From an uncultured Candidatus Bathyarchaeia archaeon (GTDB lineage: Archaea > Thermoproteota > Bathyarchaeia > 40CM-2-53-6): a DNA stretch of 41,124 nucleotides. The notes beneath the pieces were generated by a model, which saw only the letters and a program-made list of their open reading frames with translations, searched no databases and was not told the origin of the DNA. Positions 5,889-30,325 of the stretch are shown piece by piece. Within the stretch, counting starts at the first letter, position 1. Each line of letters starts with the position of its first letter. Made by a program: the position numbers and the translations under genes. The stretch covers positions 1-41,124 of the forward strand of contig CAYGWT010000331.1 in the NCBI GenBank assembly GCA_964353625.1, written 5' to 3'.

Positions 5889-6352
5889 GTCTATTTCACA
5901 AGATCATACCCTTTGTTCTGGAGCATGAAGGAGGGTACGTAAACGACAAGGATGACCCAGGTGGGGAGACCAAGTACGGGATCTCCAAGCGGGCGTTTCC
6001 TCACCTGAACATCCTGGACCTGACCCAGAAAGAAGCTATCCAGATCTACTACGACAAATACTGGAAGCACGACTGGGAACAACTCGGGTTCCCTCTAGCT
6101 GCATGTATGTTTGATACAGCAGTGAACATGGGACACTCCCGAGCCAACCACTTCCTTAAACTGTGTAGCAGGAACCACGACAACTACCTGAAGTTGAGGG
6201 CAGATCGTTACAACGAATTGATCTCCGACAATCCCACGCTCAAGAAGTTCGAGAAGGGGTGGATGAACAGGGTGGCACAACTCCGAAGGTTCATCGATGC
6301 AGGTAATGTAGGAAACTTCATTCACGGTGGAAATCGTAAGGACATAACATGA
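5885..6352 (+). CDS. GH108-type muramidase with a PG_binding_3-like C-terminus (endolysin or virion-associated lysin)
   Basis: The N-terminal motif LEHEGGYVNDKDDPGGETKYGIS is typical of glycoside hydrolase family 108. The C-terminal KGWMNRVAQL resembles the PG_binding_3 ending. It has an ATGA overlap with the upstream giant ORF. Confidence 0.85.
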   Translation: MSLFHKIIPFVLEHEGGYVNDKDDPGGETKYGISKRAFPHLNILDLTQKEAIQIYYDKYWKHDWEQLGFPLAACMFDTAVNMGHSRANHFLKLCSRNHDNYLKLRADRYNELISDNPTLKKFEKGWMNRVAQLRRFIDAGNVGNFIHGGNRKDIT

Positions 6353-9239: not shown

Positions 9240-9516
9240 CCTCCTTAGTTATCGTTCGAACACGCGTCTTCAACCGGGCAATTTCCTCTTGGTATGCAGA
9301 CTCTACTTCCGCAGTACGGGCACTCTGCTCGGCTATCAGTCGATTGTACTCCGTCACCCGGGCTACTTCCTGCTGGGCTACCTCCAACTTCAGGCTCTCG
9401 TACTTGTTGTTGCCTAATTTGTAGCCACTCCACGTACCCATCCCAAAAATCGAGATAAACACGATCGCTCCAAGACCTATCCGCACCCATAGATTAGCGC
9501 CCAGGATTGGGAACAT
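9061..9516 (-). CDS. i-spanin (Rz-like)
   Basis: It has an N-terminal TMD (WVRIGLGAIVFISIFGMGTW) followed by a long coiled-coil periplasmic domain. It contains the o-spanin start. Confidence 0.8.
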   Translation of the reverse strand: MFPILGANLWVRIGLGAIVFISIFGMGTWSGYKLGNNKYESLKLEVAQQEVARVTEYNRLIAEQSARTAEVESAYQEEIARLKTRVRTITKEVVREVEKPVYRECVLPESGRMLLDDAVRAANAATGTDGEVPPSPEPISHNDGGSVDFFN

Positions 9517-9847
9517 CTTTCCACCTATCGTCGTGTTCGGGCTTGTTCTTCAATGTCCAGCTCAGAAATTGTACACAACACCCAAGATGAGCAGCATGAG
9601 GAAGACCGGACTCAGGATCAATGTCTTCTCCCCGATTGATCGCCCCAAGGTGCCTATAGGCAGCAGCGATAAGCCTAGACACGTTGACGCCGCCACGCCA
9701 ATTATGAGCGGTATATTTTGCAGCACCGAATGTAAGAACACGAGCCACATCCTCCAAAAAGTCTGGATCCAGAAGATCCATGCGGGGTTTCTCTTGGTCA
9801 AACTTCTGACCCTGAGACCAATCAACTACTCCCCCCCTAGTCTCCAT
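9494..9847 (-). CDS. All-alpha NTP-pyrophosphohydrolase-like protein (DUF5664 / MazG-like guess)
   Basis: The stretch KFDQEKPRMDLLDPDFLEDVARVLTFGAAKYTAHNWRGG resembles the phage KY..NW family annotated as dATP/dGTP diphosphohydrolase N-terminal domain. The start is moved to ATG 9847, which has GGGGAGAG 5-6 nt upstream. Confidence 0.45.
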   Translation of the reverse strand: METRGGVVDWSQGQKFDQEKPRMDLLDPDFLEDVARVLTFGAAKYTAHNWRGGVNVSRLIAAAYRHLGAINRGEDIDPESGLPHAAHLGCCVQFLSWTLKNKPEHDDRWKDVPNPGR

Positions 9848-10058
9848 AGTACTCTCCCCAGGGGAATGATTTGGGGATGACACCCGGTAGGTTGGGAAGT
9901 CCGCAGAACTCGTCAGGTTCTCCATACGGGATGCCAGTTGCTCTTTGGTCTTGCTCATTGAAAATAGCTCCGTCCATTGAATTGGGTATCGATCTTGGGC
10001 TGCCACTAGCGCCTCTCTTAGTTAGAAACATGTTGATTGGCATTACGTTATCCCTCAT
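9837..10058 (-). CDS. Hypothetical small protein
   Basis: This frame fills the gap upstream of 9847. ATG 10058 forms an ATGA overlap with an upstream mini-ORF. An alternative ATG at 10043 has GAGGGA upstream. Confidence 0.35.
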   Translation of the reverse strand: MRDNVMPINMFLTKRGASGSPRSIPNSMDGAIFNEQDQRATGIPYGEPDEFCGLPNLPGVIPKSFPWGEYYGD

Positions 10059-13342: not shown

Positions 13343-13898
13343 CCCCGGTCATGACATACTGTTCAAAGTTCTTGGCGATGTTGATAACATCCTGCACAAC
13401 AGCCGGTTGATCACAACCAGGCAGCGCCAGATAGGCTACTGCGGTAGAGAGACTGGACTGACGGATAATCAGGGCCTGCTTCTCCTTGTCGAACTCGAAA
13501 CGTTCACGATCGAGCTTGTTCTTCTCGTCCCACGTACTAGACACTTTCTCTCCTTGCGCTTGGCGCGTTTGGGCCGGGGTACGAGCCCTGGCCGGGGCAG
13601 CTGCAGCTTCAGCAACATAGTCAACAGCGTCTTTAGCAGCAACGCTGAGCCAGTCAATGAAGCCTTTGTCATTCTTCTTGGTCTCGATGGAGAAGATATC
13701 ACCCTTCTTCGCACCCTCGAGAGCTGCCCATACTTCCTTCGGAACTGCCCAGTCGAAGAGTTTCTTGCCATCGGTCTTTCCACCGAAGGTGAGATTCTCG
13801 AACGTGCAGCTCATTTGCTTGTTGGTACCTTGACCCACTTTCTTGGGTACTTCAGTAACCGTTACGTCAATGATCTTGATGTCCACTAGTTTCTCCAT
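13317..13898 (-). CDS. Hypothetical protein. A ssDNA-binding role is only a positional guess.
   Basis: It lies immediately downstream of the DNA polymerase. The N-terminal half looks beta-rich, followed by an Ala/Arg linker and a helical C-terminal half. I recognise no motif. Confidence 0.5.
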   Translation of the reverse strand: MEKLVDIKIIDVTVTEVPKKVGQGTNKQMSCTFENLTFGGKTDGKKLFDWAVPKEVWAALEGAKKGDIFSIETKKNDKGFIDWLSVAAKDAVDYVAEAAAAPARARTPAQTRQAQGEKVSSTWDEKNKLDRERFEFDKEKQALIIRQSSLSTAVAYLALPGCDQPAVVQDVINIAKNFEQYVMTGDAGNDEPK

Positions 13899-14623
13899 GC
13901 GGTCATTTCTTTCTCACTCAGGGTAGGTCCGACCTTAACTTCCCCTGTAAATAGCAGAGGGACTGGTACCCCCCACATTCTCTTGATGTTAGCTGATATG
14001 TCCCTAAAGGACTCGATTGCTGTCTTAGCTACTAGGTCAATCTCCTTCCGGCTCGGGCAGTCGTAAACGATACTGTCGTGAACCGTGTTCACAGACAAAG
14101 ATATCGAATTCTCTTTTCTGAGGCGGTTCCTCAGAGTGACTCTTCCTAGCAACACGATATCCGCCCCAGTACCTTGAACTGGCCAGTTCGTTAAGTCTGT
14201 CCACGGTATGCGTCCATCCGGGCGAAGTGGAACAGACCACGAGTTCCCCAGTGGTGACACAATCGGCTTCTTCTGCGCGATTAGCTGTGCCCACCGAGTA
14301 TGGCATTGATCAATCCCCCTGTACTTTTTGAAGAACTTTGCATTTAGGTCATCCCAATACTCGGGCTCCTTTGAAACATGGAAGAAGTCCGGATCCCTCG
14401 CAAACGCCCAACCTGAACCACGGTAAATGGTCCTGAATAGGAAACGTTTGGCAATGAGGCGCTCTGGTAGTTCGAGGACTCGTCGATTCTTTTCGTGAAT
14501 GTCCTTTTCTGGATCATCCGGGTTGGCATCTCTGTCATTGATCTCCTCTATGGCGATCGGATCGTTGGCTAGGTACGCTAGAACTCGCCATTCTAGCTGT
14601 GCTGCATCAATCTGAACAAACAT
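13886..14623 (-). CDS. Family A DNA polymerase, C-terminal part (motifs A to C)
   Basis: It begins MFVQIDAAQLEWRVLAYLANDP, which matches Pol I motif A (DYSQIELR). Motif B-like RLIAKRFLFRTIYRGSG and motif C VNTVHDSIVYD are present. The start is set to ATG 14623 because the ORF-track start at 14671 is a TTG. Confidence 0.85.
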   Translation of the reverse strand: MFVQIDAAQLEWRVLAYLANDPIAIEEINDRDANPDDPEKDIHEKNRRVLELPERLIAKRFLFRTIYRGSGWAFARDPDFFHVSKEPEYWDDLNAKFFKKYRGIDQCHTRWAQLIAQKKPIVSPLGNSWSVPLRPDGRIPWTDLTNWPVQGTGADIVLLGRVTLRNRLRKENSISLSVNTVHDSIVYDCPSRKEIDLVAKTAIESFRDISANIKRMWGVPVPLLFTGEVKVGPTLSEKEMTAWRN

Positions 14624-14624
14624 C

Positions 14625-14837
14625 TCATTTCCGATAGTTCCGCAGTACTGCCGGTACTTCCTTCTGCCCAAGAGAGTTTACCCTGTGGGTCGCCCAATCG
14701 ACAAACTCGGCATGGACCTCCGGGTACAGGATCTGAAGATCAAGAATGAATCCTCGTACCCCTTCCTCTTTGATATAGTCCCTTACGTCAGCTAGGATGT
14801 GGGCCTGCTCTTGCTCTTTGTTGCGGTTAGTGCTCAT
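14625..14837 (-). CDS. 70-aa ORF lying between the two DNA polymerase halves
   Basis: Translation is MSTNRNKEQEQAHILADVRDYIKEEGVRGFILDLQILYPEVHAEFVDWATHRVNSLGQKEVPAVLRNYRK. It overlaps the end of the N-terminal polymerase part by 11 nt and stops 2 nt before the ATG of the C-terminal part. No nuclease motif is evident. Confidence 0.45.
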   Translation of the reverse strand: MSTNRNKEQEQAHILADVRDYIKEEGVRGFILDLQILYPEVHAEFVDWATHRVNSLGQKEVPAVLRNYRK

Positions 14838-15966
14838 AGCGACTCCGGAAAATCGACTTCACGTTGCTAGCGATGTTCTGTAGATTCGGATCACTGCTGG
14901 ACAGCCTTGTTGTAACAGTGACACACTGATTGAACTGACCGTGGATAATGTCGTTCTCATAGTGCCGCTCCTCGTACTTCTCGAGTAAGCCTCGTAGATA
15001 AGTGCTGTTCAGTTTCTGTAGTTCCTTGATCCGCAGGATTCCTTGGATCAATTCCCCACCGCCCTTGAGTTGCACCAGGAACTCTTCGCTCACCGACCAT
15101 TGTCCTTCCTTCGCTAGCTCAGACCCTTTGACGGGTTTGTACATGCGAGGGAGCCGATGTTCTCTAACCTGGTTAGCAAACTTGGGTTCTCCCGTCTTCT
15201 TTCCGCTCTTGAATAAGGCACCAGTCGGAACCTTAACCACTTCTTCGATAGTACCCCCGTAAAGTAGAGCAGAAAGATGAGGGTTGCTACCCCAGTTGAA
15301 ATTGGGAACGTTATGAAATCGAAACAGAGACTGGCGGATCTTATCCACCTCCTGCTCTGCTTCAGTAGCTCGTTGCTCGATTTGTGGCCTATCAATCTTC
15401 AGCCCATTCCACTCCATCTCCTGTAGACCAACCAAGTCTTGCATCCTGAGACTTAGCAGTTTCCGCTGACTCTCTAGAATGTGCGTCTTGTAGAACTCAT
15501 ACAACCTGTAGGTCAACTCCGCGTCTTTTGCCGCATACTCAGCTAGGACTGCTCTGGGTACCTCGTGGGTGTTGATTCCTTTCTTCCAGTACTGTTCGGC
15601 GACAACATCGAGCTTATCTTCTCCGAGATGTCTAAGGGCACATCCAGAGAGAGAAGGATACGGTTGAACTTGTCCCCCGTGGATATACTCTGCAAGTTGA
15701 CAATCGTACACTCGTCGTTCACCAATGTCGTAACCCAGCTTCTGAAGCCAGTGGAGATCATACTTGAGATTAAAGCCGACGATGAGTTCAGCTTCTTCAA
15801 ATATTCTCCCAAAGTCTGCGCGGGTCTCAGGCCAGAAAACTCTCGTTTGTATAGGAGCGCCGGCTCTTTCTCGACAAGCGGTGGAAATGCAGACGTTGAA
15901 GTTTCTTGTGTCAAAGGGATTCCCCTTGTTCCAGGTTGTGTTCTCGGTGTCTACAGCGAGAATCAT
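14827..15966 (-). CDS. Family A DNA polymerase, N-terminal part (3'-5' exonuclease plus thumb/fingers up to the PNLQNI motif)
   Basis: Exo I is MILAVDTENT, Exo II is FNLKYDLHWL and Exo III is YAAKDAELTYRL. The ORF ends ...TRLSSSDPNLQNIASNVKSIFRSRYEH. Confidence 0.85.
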   Translation of the reverse strand: MILAVDTENTTWNKGNPFDTRNFNVCISTACRERAGAPIQTRVFWPETRADFGRIFEEAELIVGFNLKYDLHWLQKLGYDIGERRVYDCQLAEYIHGGQVQPYPSLSGCALRHLGEDKLDVVAEQYWKKGINTHEVPRAVLAEYAAKDAELTYRLYEFYKTHILESQRKLLSLRMQDLVGLQEMEWNGLKIDRPQIEQRATEAEQEVDKIRQSLFRFHNVPNFNWGSNPHLSALLYGGTIEEVVKVPTGALFKSGKKTGEPKFANQVREHRLPRMYKPVKGSELAKEGQWSVSEEFLVQLKGGGELIQGILRIKELQKLNSTYLRGLLEKYEERHYENDIIHGQFNQCVTVTTRLSSSDPNLQNIASNVKSIFRSRYEH

Positions 15967-17483: not shown

Positions 17484-17799
17484 TGTTGTATCGAAGCAAC
17501 ACTAGTCGTAGGTGTCTGATTTAACAGGCGATGCTTCGTCCCAGACTAGCTGCCCCTCCAAAGACTCAGGGCCGTACTCCATACAGATGTCGCAAAAATC
17601 CAACATCAGTTCTCGCTCTTGTTGCGAAAGTACAACACCACATCCCTTGCAGTGTGTCCGAATTACAACAACCTCCCGGAGTTCTACGTCCTCCTTCCCT
17701 GTAACCGGATCCCAGTGTTGCCGAATTACAACATCCTGTTGTTTTTCTGCAACATCTTGTTGTGTGTTTACAACACCTTCTTGTTGTTTTTGTGCAACA
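17484..17799. promoter_or_regulatory. Array A of the 18-bp palindrome TGTTG-N8-CAACA (six perfect copies plus one degenerate)
   Basis: Perfect copies start at 17484, 17620, 17716, 17737, 17758 and 17782. A degenerate copy (TGTGT...CAACA) starts at 17653. The 17484 copy ends 7 nt from the -35 of the 17448-17476 promoter. The others lie inside ORF 17502..17804. Confidence 0.7.
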
Positions 17800-17804
17800 G
17801 TCAT
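17502..17804 (-). CDS. Hypothetical 100-aa protein with a C-terminal CxxC...CxxC zinc ribbon. Its N-terminal half is encoded by the palindrome array.
   Basis: The ATG overlaps the upstream stop (ATGA) and GGAG lies 8 nt upstream. The C-terminal half contains HCKGCG...FCDIC. The N-terminal half has repetitive QQ(E/D)(G/V)VV(N/I) units caused by the DNA repeats. Confidence 0.45.
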   Translation of the reverse strand: MTVAQKQQEGVVNTQQDVAEKQQDVVIRQHWDPVTGKEDVELREVVVIRTHCKGCGVVLSQQERELMLDFCDICMEYGPESLEGQLVWDEASPVKSDTYD

Positions 17805-18386: not shown

Positions 18387-18541
18387 TTGCATCCCTCCTT
18401 GCAGAGCTTCTCTGGTGGGCAGAACGACCCGCGACAGCACTCGATCGTCTTGAAATGCTCGATCTGCGCCACAGCCGCAAGCCAGAAGCACACGATCACG
18501 AGCAGAATGACTACCACCCGCTTCGCAATGGCGATGTTCAT
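18383..18541 (-). CDS. Possible 52-aa membrane-anchored Cys-rich mini-protein (not in the ORF track)
   Basis: Hand translation gives MNIAIAKRVVVILLVIVCFWLAAVAQIEHFKTIECCRGSFCPPEKLCKEGCK. It has ATGA overlaps at both ends. Confidence 0.4.
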   Translation of the reverse strand: MNIAIAKRVVVILLVIVCFWLAAVAQIEHFKTIECCRGSFCPPEKLCKEGCK

Positions 18542-18861
18542 AGTACCTTCCCCCAGAGTTCGATCATCTCGTCCGATCTGCTCGATAAGAATTGGTCCAG
18601 TTTTCGCCAGTTGTGTTGCGTCAGAATCCTTTTTTGCGGTGCGTTGGTACTTACAACTGTACAGAGTACATAGTCGTAGGCTGCGTCCTTCGCATAGTTC
18701 AGGCGTCTCTGGTGCATTGTCTTGCCGAATCCCCTACCTCGGAATGCAGGCTTGAGGAAGCTGGCATGGGATACTGCAACCTGTGCACAGCCAGGCAAAC
18801 TGGTCAATTCTCCAGCACCTGCTGTTTCGCCTTCGAGGATGAATGGTAGTCTAATCGTCAT
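18538..18861 (-). CDS. Minimal GNAT-family N-acetyltransferase-like protein
   Basis: The sequence FRGRGFGKTMHQRRLNYAKD matches the acetyl-CoA-binding motif A (R/Q-x-x-G-x-G/A). It is 107 aa and has an ATGA overlap with the primase stop. Confidence 0.6.
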   Translation of the reverse strand: MTIRLPFILEGETAGAGELTSLPGCAQVAVSHASFLKPAFRGRGFGKTMHQRRLNYAKDAAYDYVLCTVVSTNAPQKRILTQHNWRKLDQFLSSRSDEMIELWGKVL

Positions 18862-19580
18862 AGTACCTCCTGTATCTCTTCGTCAGTTTGTGACTTTGGA
18901 TCCTTATCCGTGCTTACGACACGAACGGACTTGAACTTGCTGATTCGATTGGCGAACCCCAAAGCCTCCTTGTATTTGTCTCGATCCAGCCAGATGATTA
19001 CCTCCTTGATCCAAGGCATGTTGGCTATCTGCAGCATGGTATCGATACTGATGATACTGCCAAACAAGGGCATCGTTTCACAGAAACGACTAACCTTGAT
19101 CGCAGACACAGGATCTTCGACCAGTACTAGTTTGCCGGTCTTCCTCCACTTACTTAGGATGAAGAATGGCTTTTCTCCGTGGCAGAAGGTCTTAGGAAAG
19201 GCAAAGGAAAATCGCCCATCCTCCAGTCGAGTTACCGACCTTGCTTCCCAGAAGGTGTGCTTCTTGCCAAACGCATCCTCGGATTCGTGAATGAAGAGAT
19301 GCCTCCTCAGTAACGGGCTGTACGTGAACCACTGATCTATCTCAGCATCAGTAATGTACTGCTGTAACCATTCGCGGTTTACATCCGGAAGTTCATTGCA
19401 AGCATCCATAGGAGGTTTTACTTCTTCCTTGTCTGGTTGTTGCTCGGGAGTGTACTTGAAGTGGGATGGTGGCTCGTAGTGACGACACCCGAAACAGAAC
19501 CCACTACCGTCGTCGTACCTCCCGAGATTGTCCCTAGACCCACATTTGGGGCAGGGTTCATGGCCGACGCATACACCCAT
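18858..19580 (-). CDS. DNA primase (zinc finger plus TOPRIM)
   Basis: It has an N-terminal CPKCGSRDNLGRYDDGSGFCFGC zinc ribbon and TOPRIM-like LVLVEDPVSAIKV and IIWLDRDK motifs. Confidence 0.8.
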   Translation of the reverse strand: MGVCVGHEPCPKCGSRDNLGRYDDGSGFCFGCRHYEPPSHFKYTPEQQPDKEEVKPPMDACNELPDVNREWLQQYITDAEIDQWFTYSPLLRRHLFIHESEDAFGKKHTFWEARSVTRLEDGRFSFAFPKTFCHGEKPFFILSKWRKTGKLVLVEDPVSAIKVSRFCETMPLFGSIISIDTMLQIANMPWIKEVIIWLDRDKYKEALGFANRISKFKSVRVVSTDKDPKSQTDEEIQEVL

Positions 19581-20188
19581 TAGTCGTATACCTCCTGTGG
19601 ATCCGCATCCTTACACGAATACCACAACAGATCAGCGAAGATAGCCACAAGGTCTCTCTGATCCTTTGGTTGACGAAGGCGGACCTTGATATCCTTCTTC
19701 TTGAGAACCCTGTTTACTGCTCTAGTAAACGAAACAGCATTCATGAGGGCTTTATCTCGATCCGTAATAGCTTCCTGCAATATCCGGATATCGTTTTGCT
19801 GCCTCCAGACTTGTCTCTGTAGGTTAGTGCTACGCTTTTTGTACACCTCTACCAAATAAGCGTCCCCTTTACCTTTAGGTACTTCTACTTCATCCTCTCT
19901 TAGCGGATCCGGAATGAAATACCGTTGTTGGGCGACGCCAGCAAGGAGCTGACCTAAGCCAGGATCCCCTGCGGCCGGAATCGCCTCCCGTACAGGGTTC
20001 ACAGGAACATCTCGCTGATTTGCAAGTTCCTCGAACAGCGCATCCGCGTCGAAAGGTTGTATCGGCTCACGCCGCACCTCTACTCTTGGCCGCTGTGGCA
20101 TGGGGGCAGGCCTTCGTTGCACCCCAAGGATCTCTTCGCGCAATCGTTGCCAATCAACGTTTGGATTTGGGTTATCGGGCATAGGCAT
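19580..20188 (-). CDS. Hypothetical protein
   Basis: It is a 202-aa ORF with a Pro/Arg-rich N-terminus, coupled to both neighbours. I recognise no motif. Confidence 0.55.
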   Translation of the reverse strand: MPMPDNPNPNVDWQRLREEILGVQRRPAPMPQRPRVEVRREPIQPFDADALFEELANQRDVPVNPVREAIPAAGDPGLGQLLAGVAQQRYFIPDPLREDEVEVPKGKGDAYLVEVYKKRSTNLQRQVWRQQNDIRILQEAITDRDKALMNAVSFTRAVNRVLKKKDIKVRLRQPKDQRDLVAIFADLLWYSCKDADPQEVYD

Positions 20189-20924
20189 TCGCTAGCTCCT
20201 TCAAAACGACAGCATACTCCTTTGCCTGTGAGTTGTCAACACCAGGCGCGGTGTTAACCTCGAGGACCAGTAGTTTACCGTCCTTCTTGCTCCGGATGAT
20301 ATCAACAGCACCAAAGTCGAGGCCGACAGCCTGCACTGCTTTGACAGCCAGTTCACGGATACCCTTCGGCTCCTCGATATCGTTCTTGCAGAACACGTAG
20401 CCGTTCCACCACGAGCGAATGTACTGGTCCTTCACTTCCACACCAGCACGCCTCTTCTTCTGCTGGACAAGGAAGGACTTTTCCTTAGTCGCATGGACGC
20501 GGTACTCTGCATCCTTCTGTACGTATTTGACGTACAGCGGGGCCTTGGGCAGCTCCGCATCACCACCCTTCAAGTTCACTATACCTTTTCCCGAATGGGA
20601 AGACAGCAGCTGCCTTGCGAACACCCGATCCCCCTTCTGTAGCCAGAACTTTGCCTCGGCTTTCTCTGGGGTCCACCCGGGTACTGGTACGCCGTGCAAA
20701 CTTAGTTGCTGGAAAGAGCTCAACTTGTTGCTTGCTATATCGGTTGAGGGATTCAGCATGTTCCGCTTGTACTTCGTAGGCGGCGCGGAGGATCCCCAGT
20801 TCACCACCAATGTATGCGCAGCAGGGGCCACAGAGTTCCGAATCATCCTCTTCCAACCCGTAGCGATCGAGATCGCTTTGGCCGATTGGCTGGTTCGATT
20901 GTACGGCCAGATCAGTACTTTCAT
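20172..20924 (-). CDS. ATP-grasp ligase (RimK-like)
   Basis: The pattern includes NKLSSFQQLSLHGVPVP..., SSHSGKGIV, YVQKDAEYRV and LDFGAVDII...LLVLEVNTAPG, which is the typical ATP-grasp C-terminal Mg/ATP motif. Confidence 0.75.
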   Translation of the reverse strand: MKVLIWPYNRTSQSAKAISIATGWKRMIRNSVAPAAHTLVVNWGSSAPPTKYKRNMLNPSTDIASNKLSSFQQLSLHGVPVPGWTPEKAEAKFWLQKGDRVFARQLLSSHSGKGIVNLKGGDAELPKAPLYVKYVQKDAEYRVHATKEKSFLVQQKKRRAGVEVKDQYIRSWWNGYVFCKNDIEEPKGIRELAVKAVQAVGLDFGAVDIIRSKKDGKLLVLEVNTAPGVDNSQAKEYAVVLKELANAYAR

Positions 20925-22294
20925 TGGAACCTCGAGAATTGTTGTTGGATGGCTTGCTTGTCGTGATTGTTGAGGCAGGAAGCTGAGTGTCCTTCGACAC
21001 AGTCTCCGCAGTAGAGCTTGACAAGTGCTCCCTGTCGTACCGCAACAACAGACGCGGGATCACTTTCATCAATGGCTCCTTGGCAGGACCAGCATTGCTG
21101 GGTTCTGCACATCTCTGCCCACTCTCCTTTGGGGAAAGTCTCCCCGCCATAGGTAACAACAGGTTTGTCAGCATTGGTTCCTCCATCTTCGACCTTATCC
21201 CAAACAATCTCACGATAACGAACAGTGTAGGTTGCTGTCTTGGTTTGGAAATCAAGACCAACAGCGACAACCATACCTACCCCGATATCACCCTTGCGTA
21301 CAGTTGTGGCTGACTCGGTGTTCCCAGTAACAAAATGAACCTTGTTACCTTTGACGTCATGACCAGTAAAGTGGCACTGACCATTGATCCATGTCATGTT
21401 ATCCACATGGAACTCGACGTTCTCCCCGATCTCATACTCGCGCTTGATCGAGTCATACGCAGCCTGCCCAACGACTGAACTCGGTGTGTGTGTATACTTG
21501 TACCGGTCATGCCCGCCGTGCGAAGAACCACGATTGAAGTTCGTCAATCCAGCTGGGTAAGCTTGGCCGGTCTTCGCATAGAACTTTGGGCGGTTTCCTT
21601 CGACCACCTCTCCTTCGACCATCTCCAGGGTCTCGACGTCAAATGTATACAGAGTATTGGCTTTGAACGATTTGATGCCTTGAGCTGTATAGATCTTGTT
21701 TCGAGCCGCTAGGTACTCAAGAGCTTCCTTCTCGGACATGATGTAGATCAGGTTGTTCGATTCAAGGTAGTGCAGCTCTCGTTCGTGGTTGCGCAGAATC
21801 TGAATCTGCTTCTTCTTGTTGTCGTACAAGATGATTGCCCAAGCTCCAGACAGATCGCCAATAGCCTCCTTCAGACCCTTCTCGGCAATAGCCTTGACCA
21901 TTCCATGAGAGTCTACCTCGACGTTATGCTCCTTGATATCGAGGCCTGAACGAATGGTCCCATTGTGTACAAGGGTGAACTCGTTCTCCCGGAACGGGTG
22001 AGCGTTCTGCTTATTCACCTTGCCCACAGTTGCCCATCTACCATGGCCGATCAACGCTCGTCCTGCGATCCCCTTGATCTTGAACTTCTCATAGGCCTTG
22101 TCGAACAGCAGATTGACAGATGGGCCTACTGTCTTGACGACTGGGCTTACCGACCCATCTGCGTCCACTGAGAAGCATCCCGATGAATGCCTCCCACGTA
22201 GCTCCGTCAATGTTCCCATCTGGGAGAAGATGTTGAACTCCGGATCGCCCACACCTATCTGGGACTTGTCGATGATTCCGTAGATACCGCACAT
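20921..22294 (-). CDS. Class II (Ntn) glutamine amidotransferase fused to an unassigned Cys-rich C-terminal domain of about 200 aa
   Basis: The start is set at MCGIYGII (nucleophile Cys2) with GGAAAGGAA upstream. GHGRWATVG and HNGTI follow. The C-terminal half (..CRTQQCWSCQG...YCGDCVEGHSASC) has no motif I recognise. Confidence 0.8.
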   Translation of the reverse strand: MCGIYGIIDKSQIGVGDPEFNIFSQMGTLTELRGRHSSGCFSVDADGSVSPVVKTVGPSVNLLFDKAYEKFKIKGIAGRALIGHGRWATVGKVNKQNAHPFRENEFTLVHNGTIRSGLDIKEHNVEVDSHGMVKAIAEKGLKEAIGDLSGAWAIILYDNKKKQIQILRNHERELHYLESNNLIYIMSEKEALEYLAARNKIYTAQGIKSFKANTLYTFDVETLEMVEGEVVEGNRPKFYAKTGQAYPAGLTNFNRGSSHGGHDRYKYTHTPSSVVGQAAYDSIKREYEIGENVEFHVDNMTWINGQCHFTGHDVKGNKVHFVTGNTESATTVRKGDIGVGMVVAVGLDFQTKTATYTVRYREIVWDKVEDGGTNADKPVVTYGGETFPKGEWAEMCRTQQCWSCQGAIDESDPASVVAVRQGALVKLYCGDCVEGHSASCLNNHDKQAIQQQFSRFQ

Positions 22295-22295
22295 G

Positions 22296-23141
22296 TCAGT
22301 TCCTTTCCGCGAAGTAAATCTTAGACCAAAGCACACCCTCTTCCATTGAATTCTGCAGCACAGTGGGAGGGAATATCTGTGCGGTTGCACCAAACACATT
22401 GGTTAGTAGTGCCTGGTACTCTGAGTTGGTGTTGAGTCCGGTTACTGTTCTTTCTACGGCTTCTGCTCCTTGTTTCTTGACGTAGGAATGTAGCTTAACG
22501 ATAAGCTGAATCCATCGCCGAAGCGTTATTGGATCAGCTGTTCCAGCCATATGGCGGAACTCCACAGTCCCAAACTTGGCGATACAGCTACCAACGTTCA
22601 GAGCACAGTACTTCCCTTCATCCCAACCGAAACGAACATCCTGTGGCATGATGTCAGTCAGCGGATAAGCAAAGCCATTAGCCCGCCTATCTTCCGGAAC
22701 CAACGAGAAGAACAGGTTCTCGAATACTGCGTAGAGTCCGATCAATGACCGCAGTTGTTCAAAGCTCCATGCCCTAACGTTGATATGGATGTGTACACTG
22801 CACCGATGAGACCAACGTGGCCTTTGGTCCTTCATTCCGTTTGCCAATTCACGCAAGGCGTAATCGATGTTCTTCCCAGCCACCGGAGTAGAGATCAGTT
22901 CTGCGCCATGATCCTTCAGCGAACCGTCCTTGTCCAGGTTCCAGTAGATACACTTCTGCGGCCACTTTTCTTGCGAGAACCCCTCAACCTCTACTTCGAT
23001 CCCGATTGGAATCTTGTAGCCCGAGAAGAAGGTCTTCAGTTCTTCGGAGTGATAGAACTTAGCTCCTTTCTCCTCGAGAGCACTCTGTAGAGGTAAGGCG
23101 ACTGGTCTTTCAACCAAGCCCCTAACCAGTTTGCTAGCCAT
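22296..23141 (-). CDS. Amidoligase_2-like (GS/GCS-fold COOH-NH2 ligase)
   Basis: The motifs GIEVEVEG, DGSLKDHGAELISTPV, CSVHIHINV and TVEFRHMAGT follow the pattern of the putative amidoligase family. Confidence 0.7.
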   Translation of the reverse strand: MASKLVRGLVERPVALPLQSALEEKGAKFYHSEELKTFFSGYKIPIGIEVEVEGFSQEKWPQKCIYWNLDKDGSLKDHGAELISTPVAGKNIDYALRELANGMKDQRPRWSHRCSVHIHINVRAWSFEQLRSLIGLYAVFENLFFSLVPEDRRANGFAYPLTDIMPQDVRFGWDEGKYCALNVGSCIAKFGTVEFRHMAGTADPITLRRWIQLIVKLHSYVKKQGAEAVERTVTGLNTNSEYQALLTNVFGATAQIFPPTVLQNSMEEGVLWSKIYFAERN

Positions 23142-23728
23142 TAAAGTACCTCCCGCAAGGCATCATACAACTCCTGTTGCACAGTGTTATAGAGAGGGAG
23201 ATGGAAATCCTTCCCGTTACGGGTACCAACCTTCTTCCACATGTAGTGGATATCGGTTGGTCCTAGGAACAGTCGATTGCTAATGGCCCCCCACTCGGCC
23301 AATGCCTGTTCCTTGTCCTTACGTTCGAACACAGGGCGTTGTCCGAACACATCGTGCTTGATCCAGGTATCGTTGGAGATATCACCTGCTCCACGGAAAC
23401 ACTGCCGATCTTTTCTACTGTCGTAGTAATACAGCGTGTGGGTTTGGTGGTTGACTCCAACGTAGAACAGCTTACGATGTTCCCGCACAATACACATATC
23501 TCTGGCGATGTAGCCCGAGGGAACATACTTGTATTGTGGTTCCCAGAGTGAGTAGCCATAGTTCTGGGGAGGCTCTACCAGAGCTGATCCTCTAGCATAA
23601 CCTACCAACGCTGTACCAGTCGCTCCGGTTACAAACACCGTTTGTGCAACACCAGTCTTCACGTTAAGAACCCTGGTCAAGGTGTTGCCAAACTTGCGCA
23701 TGTATGCCGCTGCATCCCACTCCTTCAT
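23141..23728 (-). CDS. Hypothetical protein within the amidoligase cassette
   Basis: It is 195 aa, with a TAATG overlap downstream and an ATGA overlap upstream. I recognise no motif. Confidence 0.55.
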   Translation of the reverse strand: MKEWDAAAYMRKFGNTLTRVLNVKTGVAQTVFVTGATGTALVGYARGSALVEPPQNYGYSLWEPQYKYVPSGYIARDMCIVREHRKLFYVGVNHQTHTLYYYDSRKDRQCFRGAGDISNDTWIKHDVFGQRPVFERKDKEQALAEWGAISNRLFLGPTDIHYMWKKVGTRNGKDFHLPLYNTVQQELYDALREVL

Positions 23729-24507
23729 TGAGGAACCTCCAGGCCGTACTGCTCGATCACCGACTGTGCACCGACCCTATCCCCGCTGTTGATGATCTCG
23801 GGAATGAAGTCCGGCAGGATGATACCCTTCCGCACTTCAGTCAGCATACGATTAACAACACGATACACCCACTCGATACGCTGTTGGGTAGTAGTCCAGA
23901 AGTTGGACGCGGTGCGAAACTCCACACCATAGGGCTTCATACGACACGCCCCTGCCTTGCCGTACAACTCTCGTCGGCGATCGTCCAGATCCACCATCAT
24001 ACCGGGCAGCGTGATGTACATATCCGCAGCACGGACAACAGTGAACATATCTTCCGGTTTGAAGTACTCGAAACCGAAATGCAGATGCCCGCCAGCCGAG
24101 CGAAGGAACGGGTTAGCCGCAGCAGGCCGAGGATTCCACTCCTTCGTATACGCATTGAGATCAGGATCACAACCCATGATCCATGCCCGATCATCCTGCA
24201 GTTCCGATTGAGGGAACACCACACTCGGCACGATGTGGACAGCAAGGCCCATCTGTCCAGCCGCATCTTCGATCAGATCACGCGCCGTGACGTTGCGATC
24301 AACCCACTCGTGCATACTTTGGGCAGGAGTGATGCCGTACTCGACGGCGCAGTTGTCCACTTGCACCGAGACCTCATTGGTCAGGGGCACGGGTTGGTCT
24401 TTCGTTCCATTGAACTTGTCAATTGCGGACACCGGCTCATTGGTGTACACAGAACGAAGGAACCATTCGGGATCACACCCGATCAGAAACTTAGGCGAGA
24501 TTGACAT
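23725..24507 (-). CDS. Second COOH-NH2 ligase-like protein (phiEco32-type, type 2)
   Basis: The N-terminal MSISPKFLIGCDPEWFL and later GGHLHFG are reminiscent of the phage COOH-NH2 ligase type 2 family. The start is set to ATG 24507. Confidence 0.55.
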   Translation of the reverse strand: MSISPKFLIGCDPEWFLRSVYTNEPVSAIDKFNGTKDQPVPLTNEVSVQVDNCAVEYGITPAQSMHEWVDRNVTARDLIEDAAGQMGLAVHIVPSVVFPQSELQDDRAWIMGCDPDLNAYTKEWNPRPAAANPFLRSAGGHLHFGFEYFKPEDMFTVVRAADMYITLPGMMVDLDDRRRELYGKAGACRMKPYGVEFRTASNFWTTTQQRIEWVYRVVNRMLTEVRKGIILPDFIPEIINSGDRVGAQSVIEQYGLEVPQ

Positions 24508-25096
24508 TGAGTTTGTCCTTGATAAGGGAACGAACGTACTGCGAGAAAGGGCTGTCCTTGTCAAGATACTCCGGGTGTCCTTGAACACCAAGCGAGTTAG
24601 TATCTTTCCAATAAACTACTTCTGCTTCTGGTTCACTGCATAGGGTTTTACCATCCGCATTTTCCTTTTCAAGGGAAAGAATATCCTTCGCCCAAGCTAG
24701 TAATTCACCACCAAAGGGGCGCATCATTTGATGGTGTGTCGAAGTAACTACGAATTCAGTATTACTACTCGTAGTAACCATATGGCTTCGGCCATGGTTC
24801 TTGACATTCTGCCATAGCTTGCCACCATTCATTGCACAGAGGAACTGTGCCCCCCTGCATATCCCAAGCATCGGGATTTTCAACTCAAGTGCTCGGAGAA
24901 AGATAGGCACTTCGATTGCATCCCTATCCGGATCAGAATAGGATGCGACGTTCTTCTCATGATACAGGGCGGGGTCAATATCAGCACCACCCCAGAAGAT
25001 GAGTAGATCCATCCGTTCTTCAACGTGCAGTGGATGGAGCACGTGTTTCGCTGCGCCGAAGTACGGATTGAACTCCACTACAGATCCGATTCTCAC
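24491..25096 (-). CDS. Class I glutamine amidotransferase / peptidase C26 (gamma-glutamyl hydrolase, PuuD-like)
   Basis: It contains LGICRGAQFL (nucleophile elbow) and GVQGHPEY (catalytic His). A GTG start at 25096 overlaps the upstream TAG, with GGAG 7 nt upstream. Confidence 0.75.
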   Translation of the reverse strand: MRIGSVVEFNPYFGAAKHVLHPLHVEERMDLLIFWGGADIDPALYHEKNVASYSDPDRDAIEVPIFLRALELKIPMLGICRGAQFLCAMNGGKLWQNVKNHGRSHMVTTSSNTEFVVTSTHHQMMRPFGGELLAWAKDILSLEKENADGKTLCSEPEAEVVYWKDTNSLGVQGHPEYLDKDSPFSQYVRSLIKDKLNVNLA

Positions 25097-26136
25097 TAGA
25101 CTTCTCCTCGTTCGTAGTGCCCGTAGTTCGGATCCCATCCATCATACACCCGATAGACAAGATCAGCTACAGCATTGTGCTCTTTCGCCGCATAGTTGGC
25201 GTTGCCTTGACGTAGATCTGCACGAAGGGCATTCAGTGCCTTGCCTAGTCTGTCCTCCTTGAAACGCCCCTTAGCATCACGAGGCATCTTGGCGGCGTGG
25301 GCCTTCAGTTTCTCACGGATGGCTCGCTTCTTTTTCAGATGCTGCTCATACCGATCAAGATCCCTGTGGAGCATATCAACTTCGTTCGGCACCTTCGCAG
25401 GGGGCTTAGCTACAGGCTTGGGTTCATCTGGGATAATGGGCAGATGGAAATGTTCACCGACCGCATACTCCCGAGGCGCATCCAACTGGCCTACAGTTTG
25501 CCCTCGTTGCCAGTACGAACCAGCACCTGAAGCACACCCCTTCATCTCCGCCATGCACTTGACCGCATCGAGGCGACGAAGCTTCTCGATAGGCACACCG
25601 ATAGGCACACCATCTGCAGGAGGTAGCTTGGCACGAAGGATATCCGTGATATACGCAAGCCCGTGTCCGTAGCTGTTATAGAACCAGCCACCATCATTGC
25701 GATAGTTTTCAGGGCTGCCGCTGCCACCAGCACGCCAAGCCATACCAACGATCGTAGCCATCGGATCGATCTTGTTCTCCATCATGTACTTAAAACAAAA
25801 CGGGTACGTTTTGTAGTACTCAAGAGGCTGTCGCAGCAGCGTGACGGCAAACACAAGTTGGCCGTAAGACCACTCCGGAGTCTGCCAATACCCGTTCGGC
25901 AGTACCGTGATCTGGAGGATCCTCTCAAGATGATCACGCCACTGATGGTAGTCCGCCTCCTCGGTAGAGCGAGGATTCTTCCGGTTAGCGAACCACTTGT
26001 GCTCCACACCAAACACAAATGATTGTGGGGCTGCTCGATCATACGGGGATCCCGTTCTCGCATAACTAAATACCCCTGCGGAACAGGCAGTGGATTTACC
26101 ATCCGCAGTAAGTAGATTGATGATCGGATTACCCAT
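25096..26136 (-). CDS. Hypothetical 346-aa protein at the head of the amidoligase cassette
   Basis: It is a long clean ORF with a basic coiled-coil C-terminal third. I recognise no motif. Confidence 0.6.
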   Translation of the reverse strand: MGNPIINLLTADGKSTACSAGVFSYARTGSPYDRAAPQSFVFGVEHKWFANRKNPRSTEEADYHQWRDHLERILQITVLPNGYWQTPEWSYGQLVFAVTLLRQPLEYYKTYPFCFKYMMENKIDPMATIVGMAWRAGGSGSPENYRNDGGWFYNSYGHGLAYITDILRAKLPPADGVPIGVPIEKLRRLDAVKCMAEMKGCASGAGSYWQRGQTVGQLDAPREYAVGEHFHLPIIPDEPKPVAKPPAKVPNEVDMLHRDLDRYEQHLKKKRAIREKLKAHAAKMPRDAKGRFKEDRLGKALNALRADLRQGNANYAAKEHNAVADLVYRVYDGWDPNYGHYERGEV

Positions 26137-26344
26137 GTTTGCCTCCAGTCACCACACTGTACACCTGACCGTACTGCTTGTCGGACATGGCAGCACCGGC
26201 TACCATTTTCGGATAGCCAGACTGCGTATTGAAACGAGTCCAACCATCCCATCCTTTCCCACAGAACACATCCACTCCGCCGGTAATCGGAAGGATTACA
26301 ACATCACCGGTATGGTTGAAGCGGACCTTGTGCTTGCGTGTCAT
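26129..26344 (-). CDS. Hypothetical small protein
   Basis: It is 71 aa and has an 8-nt overlap with the downstream gene. Confidence 0.5.
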   Translation of the reverse strand: MTRKHKVRFNHTGDVVILPITGGVDVFCGKGWDGWTRFNTQSGYPKMVAGAAMSDKQYGQVYSVVTGGKHG

Positions 26345-30296: not shown

Positions 30297-30325
30297 TTGA
30301 CAAAATCAAAAAAATATGCTATAAT
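30297..30325 (+). promoter_or_regulatory. Perfect-consensus extended -10 sigma70 promoter for the rightward arm
   Basis: The sequence is TTGACA-aaatcaaaaaaatatgc-TATAAT, with a 17-nt spacer and TGc immediately upstream of the -10. Confidence 0.75.

Follow-up and report, generated by a model that had tools for sequence, protein, structure and literature searches.

Which compound or covalent modification do lytic podophages produce with the set of predicted amide ligases and glutamine amidotransferases that they encode next to their replication genes? The question is raised by contig CAYGWT010000331.1, filed with an uncultured Candidatus Bathyarchaeia archaeon, which is 41,124 bp long (hereafter the window) and represents a partial podophage-like genome. 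Seven open reading frames (ORFs) reside on its minus strand at positions 20172-26136, each of them translationally coupled to its neighbour. Judged by its protein families and their arrangement, this block is a divergent new instance of the amidoligase cassette of phiEco32/LUZ24/PaP3-type phages. Its conserved core comprises six genes encoding, in the order of transcription, a peptidase C26-type hydrolase, a COOH-NH2 ligase, a protein of 195 residues termed U195 here, an Amidoligase_2, a class II glutamine amidotransferase (GATase II) and an ATP-grasp ligase. A phage amidoligase cassette was reportedly predicted in the 2009 survey by Iyer, Abhiman, Burroughs and Aravind. We tentatively propose that the cassette builds and trims an amide-linked product derived from glutamate or glutamine, early in infection, in the cytoplasm and at the expense of ATP.

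Predicted enzymes and the U195 protein

Pfam family calls were judged against the curated gathering scores, which are exceeded by all five enzyme families of the cassette, and the matches to PHROGs are stronger still (E 1e-32 to 1e-68). The assignments made in an earlier note on this DNA (ATP-grasp, N-terminal nucleophile (Ntn) GATase, Amidoligase_2, COOH-NH2 ligase and C26) are thus upheld, and all the motifs quoted there are indeed present, namely MCGIYG, GIEVEVEG, DGSL..GAELISTP, HIHIN, EFRH, GCDPEWF, GICRGAQF and GVQGHPE.

Three of the proteins are predicted to be intact ATP-dependent carboxylate-amine ligases. The COOH-NH2 ligase of the phiEco32 type (23725..24507, minus strand; 260 aa) matches PF14395 with 41 bits (cut-off 25, E 1.7e-10) and phrog_3815 over its full length (E 9.3e-68). 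It is 38% identical to Bruynoghevirus proteins, and D12/E14, G140-H141 and E196/R198 are invariant over 39 homologues. The Amidoligase_2 (22296..23141, minus strand; 281 aa) matches PF12224 with 40.4 bits (cut-off 22, E 4e-10) and phrog_7469 with E 2.7e-32, the invariant residues over 37 homologues being G47-E49-E51-E53, H117/H119 and E194/R196. It keeps the Glu-rich strand, the His-x-His and the Glu-Phe-Arg motif, and the COOH-NH2 ligase keeps the equivalent Asp/Glu, Gly-His and Glu/Arg. We take both to belong to the superfamily of carboxylate-amine ligases resembling glutamine synthetase (GS) and GCS2, to which phage ligases of this kind are assigned. A relative of solved structure was found for neither protein by sequence or PDB profile search.

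The third candidate ligase is the product of the final core gene, an ATP-grasp protein of the RimK/LysX clade (20172..20924, minus strand; 250 aa). It scores 27.8 bits with Pfam RimK (cut-off 21, E 2.3e-6) and matches phrog_2599 with E 4.1e-57. The NCBIfam matches are rimK_fam (1.1e-12), MptN (9.4e-11) and LysX (1.7e-8), all of which stay under cut-off (47.9 bits vs 143.4 for rimK_fam and 33.9 vs 275.6 for LysX). RimK is the nearest solved sequence and the LEVN motif is present. By sequence, the protein thus appears to group with the alpha-L-glutamate ligases RimK, MptN, LysX and CofF.

GATase II (20921..22294, minus strand; 457 aa) combines an Ntn amidotransferase domain with an extension of a different kind. 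Only its N-terminal half is covered by GATase_6 (53.5 bits, cut-off 27, E 3.1e-14) and GATase_7 (1.9e-7); phrog_4736 is matched with E 1e-61, and EgtC is among the weak NCBIfam matches. The protein begins with MCG, Cys2 being the catalytic residue, and so do nearly all of its homologues, across which R86 is nearly invariant and N111-G112 and D128 are invariant. We assume that these positions correspond to the residues of GlmS and PurF that make up the oxyanion hole and hold glutamine by its alpha-carboxylate and alpha-amino groups. The earlier note had also described a fused, unassigned Cys-rich domain of about 200 residues, and this description is borne out: the C-terminal ~208 residues contain seven cysteines (307, 396, 401, 404, 429, 432 and 440) and have no Pfam match, neither in the window protein nor in any of 40 homologues. 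A single homologue of this domain (53% identity) was retrieved from 5.8 billion proteins. In the family consensus the domain ends with a conserved CxxC...CxxC motif. The AlphaFold2 model, calculated from a two-sequence alignment, is unusable (pLDDT 40.7); a beta-rich architecture is hinted at with low confidence, and no relation to U195 was detected.

The first core gene encodes a class I GATase/peptidase C26-type putative gamma-glutamyl hydrolase (24491..25138, minus strand; 215 aa). It matches Peptidase_C26 with 75.7 bits (cut-off 20.5, E 5.9e-21), GATase with 6.4e-10 and phrog_7218 with 1.6e-39, and its catalytic residues are intact (Cys94 within GICRG and His-Pro-Glu 188-190). The nearest solved sequences are Lin1909, chains of a Pseudomonas 'probable glutamine amidotransferase' and PuuD (E 1e-8 to 3e-7). 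In NCBIfam, gamma-glutamyl-CDP-amidate hydrolase and gamma-glutamyl-GABA hydrolase score best, both far under cut-off; the latter family, the PuuD equivalog NF008471, is matched with 39 bits against a cut-off of 266. On this basis, the protein appears to group with the gamma-glutamyl-amide hydrolases. Since the matches to RimK, LysX, PuuD and GlmS are all far under the respective equivalog cut-offs, they indicate the chemistry and not the substrate.

U195 (23141..23728, minus strand; 195 aa, mostly beta-strand) is encoded between the two predicted GS-like ligases. It has no match in Pfam, PHROGs or NCBIfam, nothing was found in PHROGs for any of 21 members of its family, tblastn against GenBank phages gave no match and a word-indexed protein search returned U195 itself only. 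Relatives were detected solely by exhaustive HMMER searching and by fold comparison. Among 1.84 billion representatives, HMMER found 24 proteins with E<=1e-3, the query counted, nearly all of them 174-204 aa long, and from their alignment AlphaFold2 produced a model with 16 strands and four helices (pLDDT 93.8, pTM 0.85). This model has no match in the PDB at E<=1e-3, and its weak resemblances to small barrels of the KOW, Tudor and Sm/Hfq types stay below significance (best E 0.03, TM about 0.2). Significance was reached only in BFVD, where full-length matches with TM 0.5-0.6 were obtained to uncharacterized phage proteins of 180-200 aa from Salinivibrio phage CW02, Vibrio phage Vp_R1 and, more weakly, Pseudomonas phage Bjorn; phage Bjorn also encodes an amidoligase according to our search of GenBank phage proteins. 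According to the family HMM, 64 of the 85 sources surveyed (see below) encode a relative at the corresponding position between the ligases. When compared by hhalign with the proteins encoded at this position in PaP3, MW202697 and Vibrio phage 1.208.B, U195 yielded only weak, colinear alignments, and the link to the MW202697 protein rests on overlapping HMM membership. A basic motif at window residues 82-91 is conserved in the broad family. Taken together, U195 is a conserved core component that, by its model, lacks a recognizable catalytic fold and is apparently non-enzymatic. The conserved N-terminus 'MKEWD' was considered as an acceptor site and rejected, as it is kept only in the closest subfamily.

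Coupling, core genes and occurrence of the cassette

The genes of the cassette are tightly packed. The 346-aa ORF with which the block begins overlaps the C26 gene by 43 nt, and the latter overlaps the COOH-NH2 ligase gene by 17 nt. The following junctions are ATGA (COOH-NH2 ligase/U195), TAATG (U195/Amidoligase_2), a gap of 1 nt (Amidoligase_2/GATase II) and ATGA (GATase II/ATP-grasp). Start codons were corrected for the COOH-NH2 ligase (ATG 24507) and for GATase II (ATG 22294, MCG...), and the longer mechanical ORFs were not used. Coupling continues beyond 20172, where the ATP-grasp gene overlaps a 202-aa ORF by 17 nt, and this ORF is in turn joined to the primase gene by TAATG. As the cassette is coupled into the primase gene and as no strong terminator-like hairpin is present from about 26.6 kb to 17.5 kb, cassette and replication genes look like a single transcription unit, which would be part of the leftward transcription spanning 7.2-29.8 kb of the window. 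The nearest strong terminator-like hairpin upstream of the cassette (28745-28718, minus strand; 12-bp stem and T-run) follows a 254-aa ORF.

The 346-aa ORF (25096..26136, minus strand) is of a different status. It has no Pfam, PHROG or NCBIfam match and a single homologue in 5.8 billion proteins (P0028, 37% identity), which is encoded on a metagenome contig of 5.2 kb whose local gene order is the same; it was not found in the other 83 loci. It also shows no detectable relation to orf49/orf50 of PaP3 or to ECBP2_0086/0087, the proteins of about 315-406 aa that precede the cassette in these phages. The interval it occupies, between a small ORF of 71 aa and the C26 gene, differs in length among relatives, from 0 to about 2,100 nt. 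Given that the 346-aa ORF is confined to one lineage and placed in a variable interval, we conclude that the conserved core consists of six genes and that this ORF, although apparently co-transcribed, probably stands outside the conserved system. The coupled seven-gene cassette of the earlier note can therefore be retained with respect to ORFs, coordinates and coupling and has to be modified in two respects, its core being six genes and its operon running on into the primase gene. Likewise, its two proteins without family assignment indeed both lack one, yet only the 195-aa protein is a conserved core member.

Close relatives of the window phage were not encountered. A megablast search with the 6-kb block against GenBank phages yielded no match and a scan of IMG/VR for close relatives of the COOH-NH2 ligase was likewise empty, and we therefore regard the phage as lacking a near relative. 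At the protein level, homologues of the amidoligase are present in 327 and homologues of the COOH-NH2 ligase in 304 GenBank phage records, with identities of about 38% at most; the hosts of these phages mainly belong to Pseudomonas, Escherichia, Vibrio, Aeromonas, Proteus and Salmonella. When IMG/VR was scanned by profile, at least 379 related contigs emerged, the best 80 of which were analyzed, and with HMMs built and iterated locally for the genes of the locus a total of 85 sources was surveyed.

This survey of gene neighbourhoods, which the earlier note had suggested, revealed a conserved order. The modal arrangement is C26, COOH-NH2 ligase, U195, Amidoligase_2, GATase II, ATP-grasp, primase, and it is realized in 37 identical loci and, furthermore, in variants with extra flanking genes or with ends cut by the contig border. 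The window differs from it by one extra ORF on either side. Primase follows ATP-grasp in most related loci, and 73 of the 85 sources have a C26 homologue. Among 74 complete cassettes, 63 contain a U195-type protein and 68 a gamma-glutamyl-releasing enzyme, either C26 only (61 cassettes), gamma-glutamyl cyclotransferase (AIG2/GGCT) only (four) or both (three), while six have neither; in the window this enzyme is C26 and GGCT is absent. The C26-first six-gene form with U195 is thus the dominant environmental architecture. The separation of core from accessory genes, the recognition of U195 as a conserved component, the dominance of the C26-first form and the near-universal presence of a gamma-glutamyl-releasing enzyme go beyond what had been noted for this DNA before.

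In cultured phages the cassette takes a slightly different shape. PaP3 features COOH-NH2 ligase, a 192-aa ORF, amidoligase, GATase II, a 72-aa ORF, ATP-grasp, GGCT, a 120-aa ORF and primase/helicase in this order. The phiEco32-like phage ECBP2 has a PaP3-like arrangement with extra small ORFs after GATase II and between ATP-grasp, GGCT and primase/helicase, and the LUZ24-like phage UFV-P2 shows a PaP3-like order into which a homing HNH endonuclease gene is inserted (PMC3890496). The C26-first form is found in the uncultured phage MW202697. Together with most of the IMG/VR loci, PaP3, ECBP2 and UFV-P2 bear out the earlier statement that the cassette is known from phage comparative genomics. The window shares with the phiEco32/LUZ24/PaP3 cassette all five enzyme families, the order COOH-NH2 ligase, ~190-aa protein, Amidoligase_2, GATase II, ATP-grasp and the position upstream of primase, and in both cases GATase II has an N-terminal catalytic Cys and a C-terminal extension that is not of the GlmS type. 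Differences concern the gamma-glutamyl-releasing enzyme, which is GGCT at the 3' end in PaP3 and ECBP2 and C26 at the 5' end in the window and in the majority of environmental contigs, and the companions, as the window lacks orf49/orf50 and orf44 of PaP3 and has the 346-aa ORF inserted upstream. Sequence identity of the window cassette proteins to those of any cultured phage is 25-40%. The PaP3 product of orf44 (L003:8686-8904; 72 aa), encoded between GATase II and ATP-grasp, matches Pfam DUF7195 (5.5e-18) and has no counterpart in the window.

When 185,579 species genomes were searched with the COOH-NH2 ligase, 28 contigs (L085-L112) were found, several of them 46-54 kb long and thus of the size of such phage genomes. 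They are probably phage genomes that have been binned with cellular ones. As all of these hits stem from metagenome-assembled or uncultured genomes, the family is essentially restricted to viruses. Bins containing these contigs include Saccharibacteria, Patescibacteria and Woesearchaeota.

The cassette ranks among the most widespread multi-enzyme modules of uncharacterized chemistry in lytic podophages. Its carriers include therapy candidates of the LUZ24/PaP3 group and phiEco32-like coliphages; about 4 kb of a roughly 45-kb genome is devoted to it, and its order is kept across hosts. Identifying its product would bring to light a novel metabolite of phage origin or a novel covalent modification, and for this purpose LUZ24, PaP3 and phiEco32-like phages are better suited than the window, which is no more tractable than these cultured phages.

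What the cassette may build

How could these proteins act together? If the cassette builds and trims a product derived from glutamate or glutamine, which we consider quite possible, the three ligases would form up to three amide bonds via acyl-phosphate intermediates, and one or more of these bonds would be of the gamma-glutamyl or alpha-glutamyl type. What results would be a short compound joined by amide linkages, either a peptide-like metabolite or a modified precursor. GATase II would free ammonia from glutamine and thus turn an activated carboxylate into a carboxamide or, alternatively, it could cleave a gamma-glutamyl amide in the manner of EgtC. The C26 hydrolase, instead of or in addition to which GGCT would serve in other phages, would then take off the gamma-glutamyl group for deprotection, release or recycling. 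Deprotection or release by removal of a gamma-glutamyl group is the chemistry of PuuD and of BtrG from butirosin biosynthesis. U195 may present the substrate to its two flanking ligases or act as their scaffold. As acceptor, a free peptide or small molecule seems to us more likely than a macromolecule. A gamma-glutamyl conjugate that is built and trimmed is consistent with all observations. In phage SU10, ATP-grasp, GATase and GGCT-like proteins were found by proteomics among the early gene products (PMC4281155), and in the directed evolution of a Pseudomonas phage missense mutations in amidoligase and GATase arose in both evolved derivatives (PMC11450229).

The earlier note had drawn a parallel to PuuA/PuuD, for which the Pseudomonas counterparts are PauA/PauD. 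PuuA/PuuD combines an ATP-dependent gamma-glutamyl-amide ligase with a C26 hydrolase that removes the very same amide, as the phage cassette may do, and because the nearest solved relatives of the C26 protein include PuuD the analogy is fair at the family level for the hydrolase. For the ligases the parallel is functional only, as neither belongs to the family of PuuA: no match to Gln-synt_C was obtained for either of them in Pfam at E<=0.1, and none in NCBIfam, and the GS fold that PuuA possesses is a predicted one in the phage ligases. Furthermore, the oxidase/dehydrogenase pair PuuB/PuuC is not part of the cassette, which has three ligases and an Ntn GATase.

Several points speak against a small Glu- or Gln-derived conjugate. 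The matches to characterized enzymes all fall far short of equivalog cut-offs, so that the substrate is deduced at the family level only. Both predicted GS-like ligase families are devoid of a solved or characterized relative that is detectable by sequence profile, and the hhalign comparison between the two is marginal (E 0.021). The C-terminal domain of GATase II, which would be expected to bind the acceptor or a partner, diverges fast and has no usable model. The lack of a recognizable catalytic fold in U195 and its weak likeness to KOW, Tudor and Sm domains would fit a macromolecular target equally well. Finally, and in agreement with the earlier note, no experimental demonstration of a product or target of the phage amidoligase cassette was found in the literature searched.

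A macromolecular target would be at hand if the ligases extended a protein of host or phage, such as one of the ribosome or another part of the translation or transcription machinery, with glutamate or a short peptide tail. In that case, U195 could be the target or the adaptor that binds it, the added group could be erased by C26 or GGCT, and GATase II could deamidate in the manner of Dop or act as an amidating enzyme. RimK acting on S6, tubulin tyrosine ligase-like (TTLL) enzymes acting on tubulin and PafA/Dop in pupylation provide models. Although this is somewhat unlikely in our view, the nearest characterized relatives of the ATP-grasp protein, RimK and LysX, act on protein C-termini, the barrels that U195 weakly resembles are typical of ribosome and RNA binders, and PHROGs places ATP-grasp and GATase I in the category 'host takeover'. 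Protein modification has also repeatedly been proposed for phage peptide ligases by the Aravind group (PMC4431377). In common with the RimK and LysX/LysW systems, the operon conserves a dedicated small partner protein beside an ATP-grasp protein that is best matched by rimK_fam, MptN and LysX. However, LysW is a 54-aa zinc ribbon and U195 a mostly beta-stranded protein of ~190 aa, and the fold matches of U195 are below significance, as detailed above. A small Pup- or LysW-like protein in which a C-terminal acceptor or donor residue is conserved was not detected, and among the window neighbours none has an EDWGE-type C-terminus; a zinc-ribbon protein found in 39 related loci has variable termini, abuts primase and is not encoded in the window. 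With pupylation the cassette shares GS/GCS2-like carboxylate-amine ligases and a glutamine-deamidating or amide-cleaving enzyme, whereas a Pup_ligase match in Pfam, an operon ORF ending in GGQ/GGE and a proteasome context are all missing. Moreover, GGCT requires a gamma-glutamyl group with a free alpha-amino function, which is a better fit to small molecules. A more far-reaching version, unlikely in our estimation, has U195, as member of a virus-specific family without significant PDB match and with a conserved basic motif, docking the three ligases on a macromolecule of host or phage, for instance the ribosome, RNA polymerase or a protein of the replisome, or serving as the carrier itself, with a glutamyl/glutaminyl peptide being built, amidated and trimmed at that place. 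If true, the cassette would stand for a new and widespread class of viral post-translational (or nucleic-acid) modification serving early takeover or counter-defence.

It is also conceivable, even if we deem it decidedly unlikely, that the three ligases mimic the unusual peptide bonds found in the stem peptide of peptidoglycan and remodel cytoplasmic murein precursors. MurT/GatD, a pair of ligase and GATase that amidates the stem-peptide glutamate from glutamine, sets a precedent, and D-Ala-D-Ala ligase is among the weak matches of the ATP-grasp protein. On the other hand, none of the cassette proteins contains a Mur-ligase, transpeptidase or peptidoglycan-binding domain according to Pfam, and the cassette is expressed with replication genes and fixed beside these rather than beside lysis genes. 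Its carriers are strictly lytic podophages with a short cycle, for which a benefit from superinfection exclusion appears doubtful. Exclusion of superinfecting phages or tuning of lysis would be the effect, and this was the original Iyer/Aravind proposal as relayed in later genome papers. The module is repeatedly credited to the 2009 survey, and secondary accounts list it as putatively involved in peptidoglycan modification or superinfection exclusion or as auxiliary metabolic genes (PMC11945000, PMC10580990, PMC11706807, PMC10945688); experimental support for a role at the cell wall was not found in the literature searched. The fixed position beside primase, helicase and polymerase would be accounted for if an amino-acid-derived amide were installed on a nucleotide or base in order to evade restriction, and the conserved adjacency to primase within the replication module as well as a MazZ-type dATP/dGTP diphosphohydrolase domain encoded in the window (see below) agree with this idea. 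Purine biosynthesis, too, employs Ntn GATase, ATP-grasp and GATase I enzymes. In some viral contigs amidoligase and amidotransferase domains do occur in thymidine hypermodification clusters (PMC8989533). Still, we consider nucleotide or DNA modification improbable. Hypermodification clusters are multi-enzyme phage cassettes as well, but the enzymes that define them (5-HMUDK, alpha-glutamyl/putrescinyl thymine pyrophosphorylase or aGPT-Pplase, PLP and radical-SAM enzymes) were not detected in the scanned ORFs of the window. Pfam and PHROG scans of the cassette and about 30 other ORFs of this partial contig revealed no dUMP/dCMP hydroxymethylase, 5-hmdU DNA kinase, aGPT-Pplase or TET/JBP dioxygenase, and glycosyltransferase and PurZ were missing from the scanned ORFs as well. 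The absence of specific support for DNA hypermodification, already stated in the earlier note with regard to dUMP hydroxymethylase and DNA kinase, is thereby corroborated. Beyond their ATP sites, the six core proteins have no nucleic-acid- or nucleotide-binding domain recognized by Pfam. In addition, DNA of the LUZ24-like phage tf, which encodes amidoligase and glutamine amidotransferase, was cut by ordinary restriction enzymes and could be Sanger-sequenced, site-specific nicks being the sole anomaly reported (PMC3517423). Least probable of all, to the point of being hardly expected, is a mere boost to the glutamine/glutamate or glutathione-like metabolism of the host. A GCS2-like ligase, an ATP-grasp enzyme and GGCT together resemble the gamma-glutamyl cycle. 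When ergothioneine formation is included, four classes co-occur in a similar manner (GCS2-type ligase, ATP-grasp GshB, GGCT and EgtC-type Ntn amidohydrolase). This likeness stays at the superfamily level; thiol-specific and histidine-betaine enzymes are absent, and an extra ligase as well as U195 are present. Genome papers do refer to the genes as auxiliary metabolic genes for nitrogen or amino-acid metabolism (PMC10945688, PMC10580990), yet unlike true genes of this kind the ligase families are virus-restricted and not host-like copies, no cassette protein reaches the cut-off of a housekeeping-enzyme equivalog, and the fixed order of six genes with a dedicated U195 argues for a specific product.

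Neighbouring genes in the window

The conserved downstream neighbour of the cassette is a DNA primase gene (18858..19580, minus strand) with matches to phrog_47 and phrog_239 at about 1e-8. The 202-aa ORF located between it and the ATP-grasp gene (19580..20188, minus strand) has no PHROG or NCBIfam match and no homologue among the other 84 loci surveyed, and is thus confined to the window. Directly after primase a small GNAT acetyltransferase is encoded (18538-18861, minus strand; PF00583, 7.5e-6). GNAT relatives reside near the cassette in seven of the 85 sources, and such an enzyme could occasionally act as a capping enzyme of the cassette pathway.

On the other side of the cassette, the 71-aa ORF (26129..26344, minus strand) represents a family of small proteins with the core 'DVF.G.GW..W.RF' that recurs upstream of the cassette. 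Members were found upstream of C26 in about 35 loci at distances of 0-2100 nt. A different small protein of ~70 aa, featuring a CxxC...CxxC zinc ribbon and an acidic tail that often ends with an aromatic residue, is encoded in the interval between ATP-grasp and primase in the 39 related loci mentioned above, where it usually abuts primase (e.g., L008:6821-7051 and L012:12234-12443); a copy detectable by HMM is not present in the window. It looks more like a replisome accessory protein with a T7-like acidic tail than like a LysW-type carrier, and its candidacy as such a carrier was rejected on the grounds given above. In the window, a similar CxxC...CxxC layout is found in a 100-aa ORF (17502-17804, minus strand).

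Scanning ORFs of the contig with PHROGs identified ribonucleotide reductase, a split family-A DNA polymerase, a DnaB-like helicase and primase, and furthermore large terminase, portal and major head protein. The two polymerase ORFs (13886-14671 and 14827-15966, both minus strand) match consecutive parts of phrog_17 and lie 155 nt apart; Rfam finds no intron, and the arrangement may reflect either a genuinely split gene or a frameshift. The MazZ-type domain is the N-terminal domain of dATP/dGTP diphosphohydrolase (PF18909, E 1.4e-31) and is encoded by a 170-aa ORF (9494-10006, minus strand). In diaminopurine (Z-genome) phages MazZ partners PurZ. A Z-genome was therefore considered and rejected, as there is no PurZ-like protein among the ORFs of at least 300 aa on this partial contig.

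A perfect sigma-70 consensus (TTGACA-17-TATAAT with an upstream TG) is situated in the strand-switch region at 30297-30325 on the plus strand. At the beginning of the contig, a 1,928-aa ORF (102-5888, plus strand) matches the virion RNA polymerase PHROG weakly (1.4e-9) and with residues 779-977 only. This ORF probably runs off the contig start and a terminal repeat is absent, from which we conclude that the genome is incomplete. The 1,928-aa ORF is directly followed by a gene for a GH108 lysozyme (5885-6352, plus strand; PF05838, 1.5e-21) with a possible peptidoglycan-binding domain.

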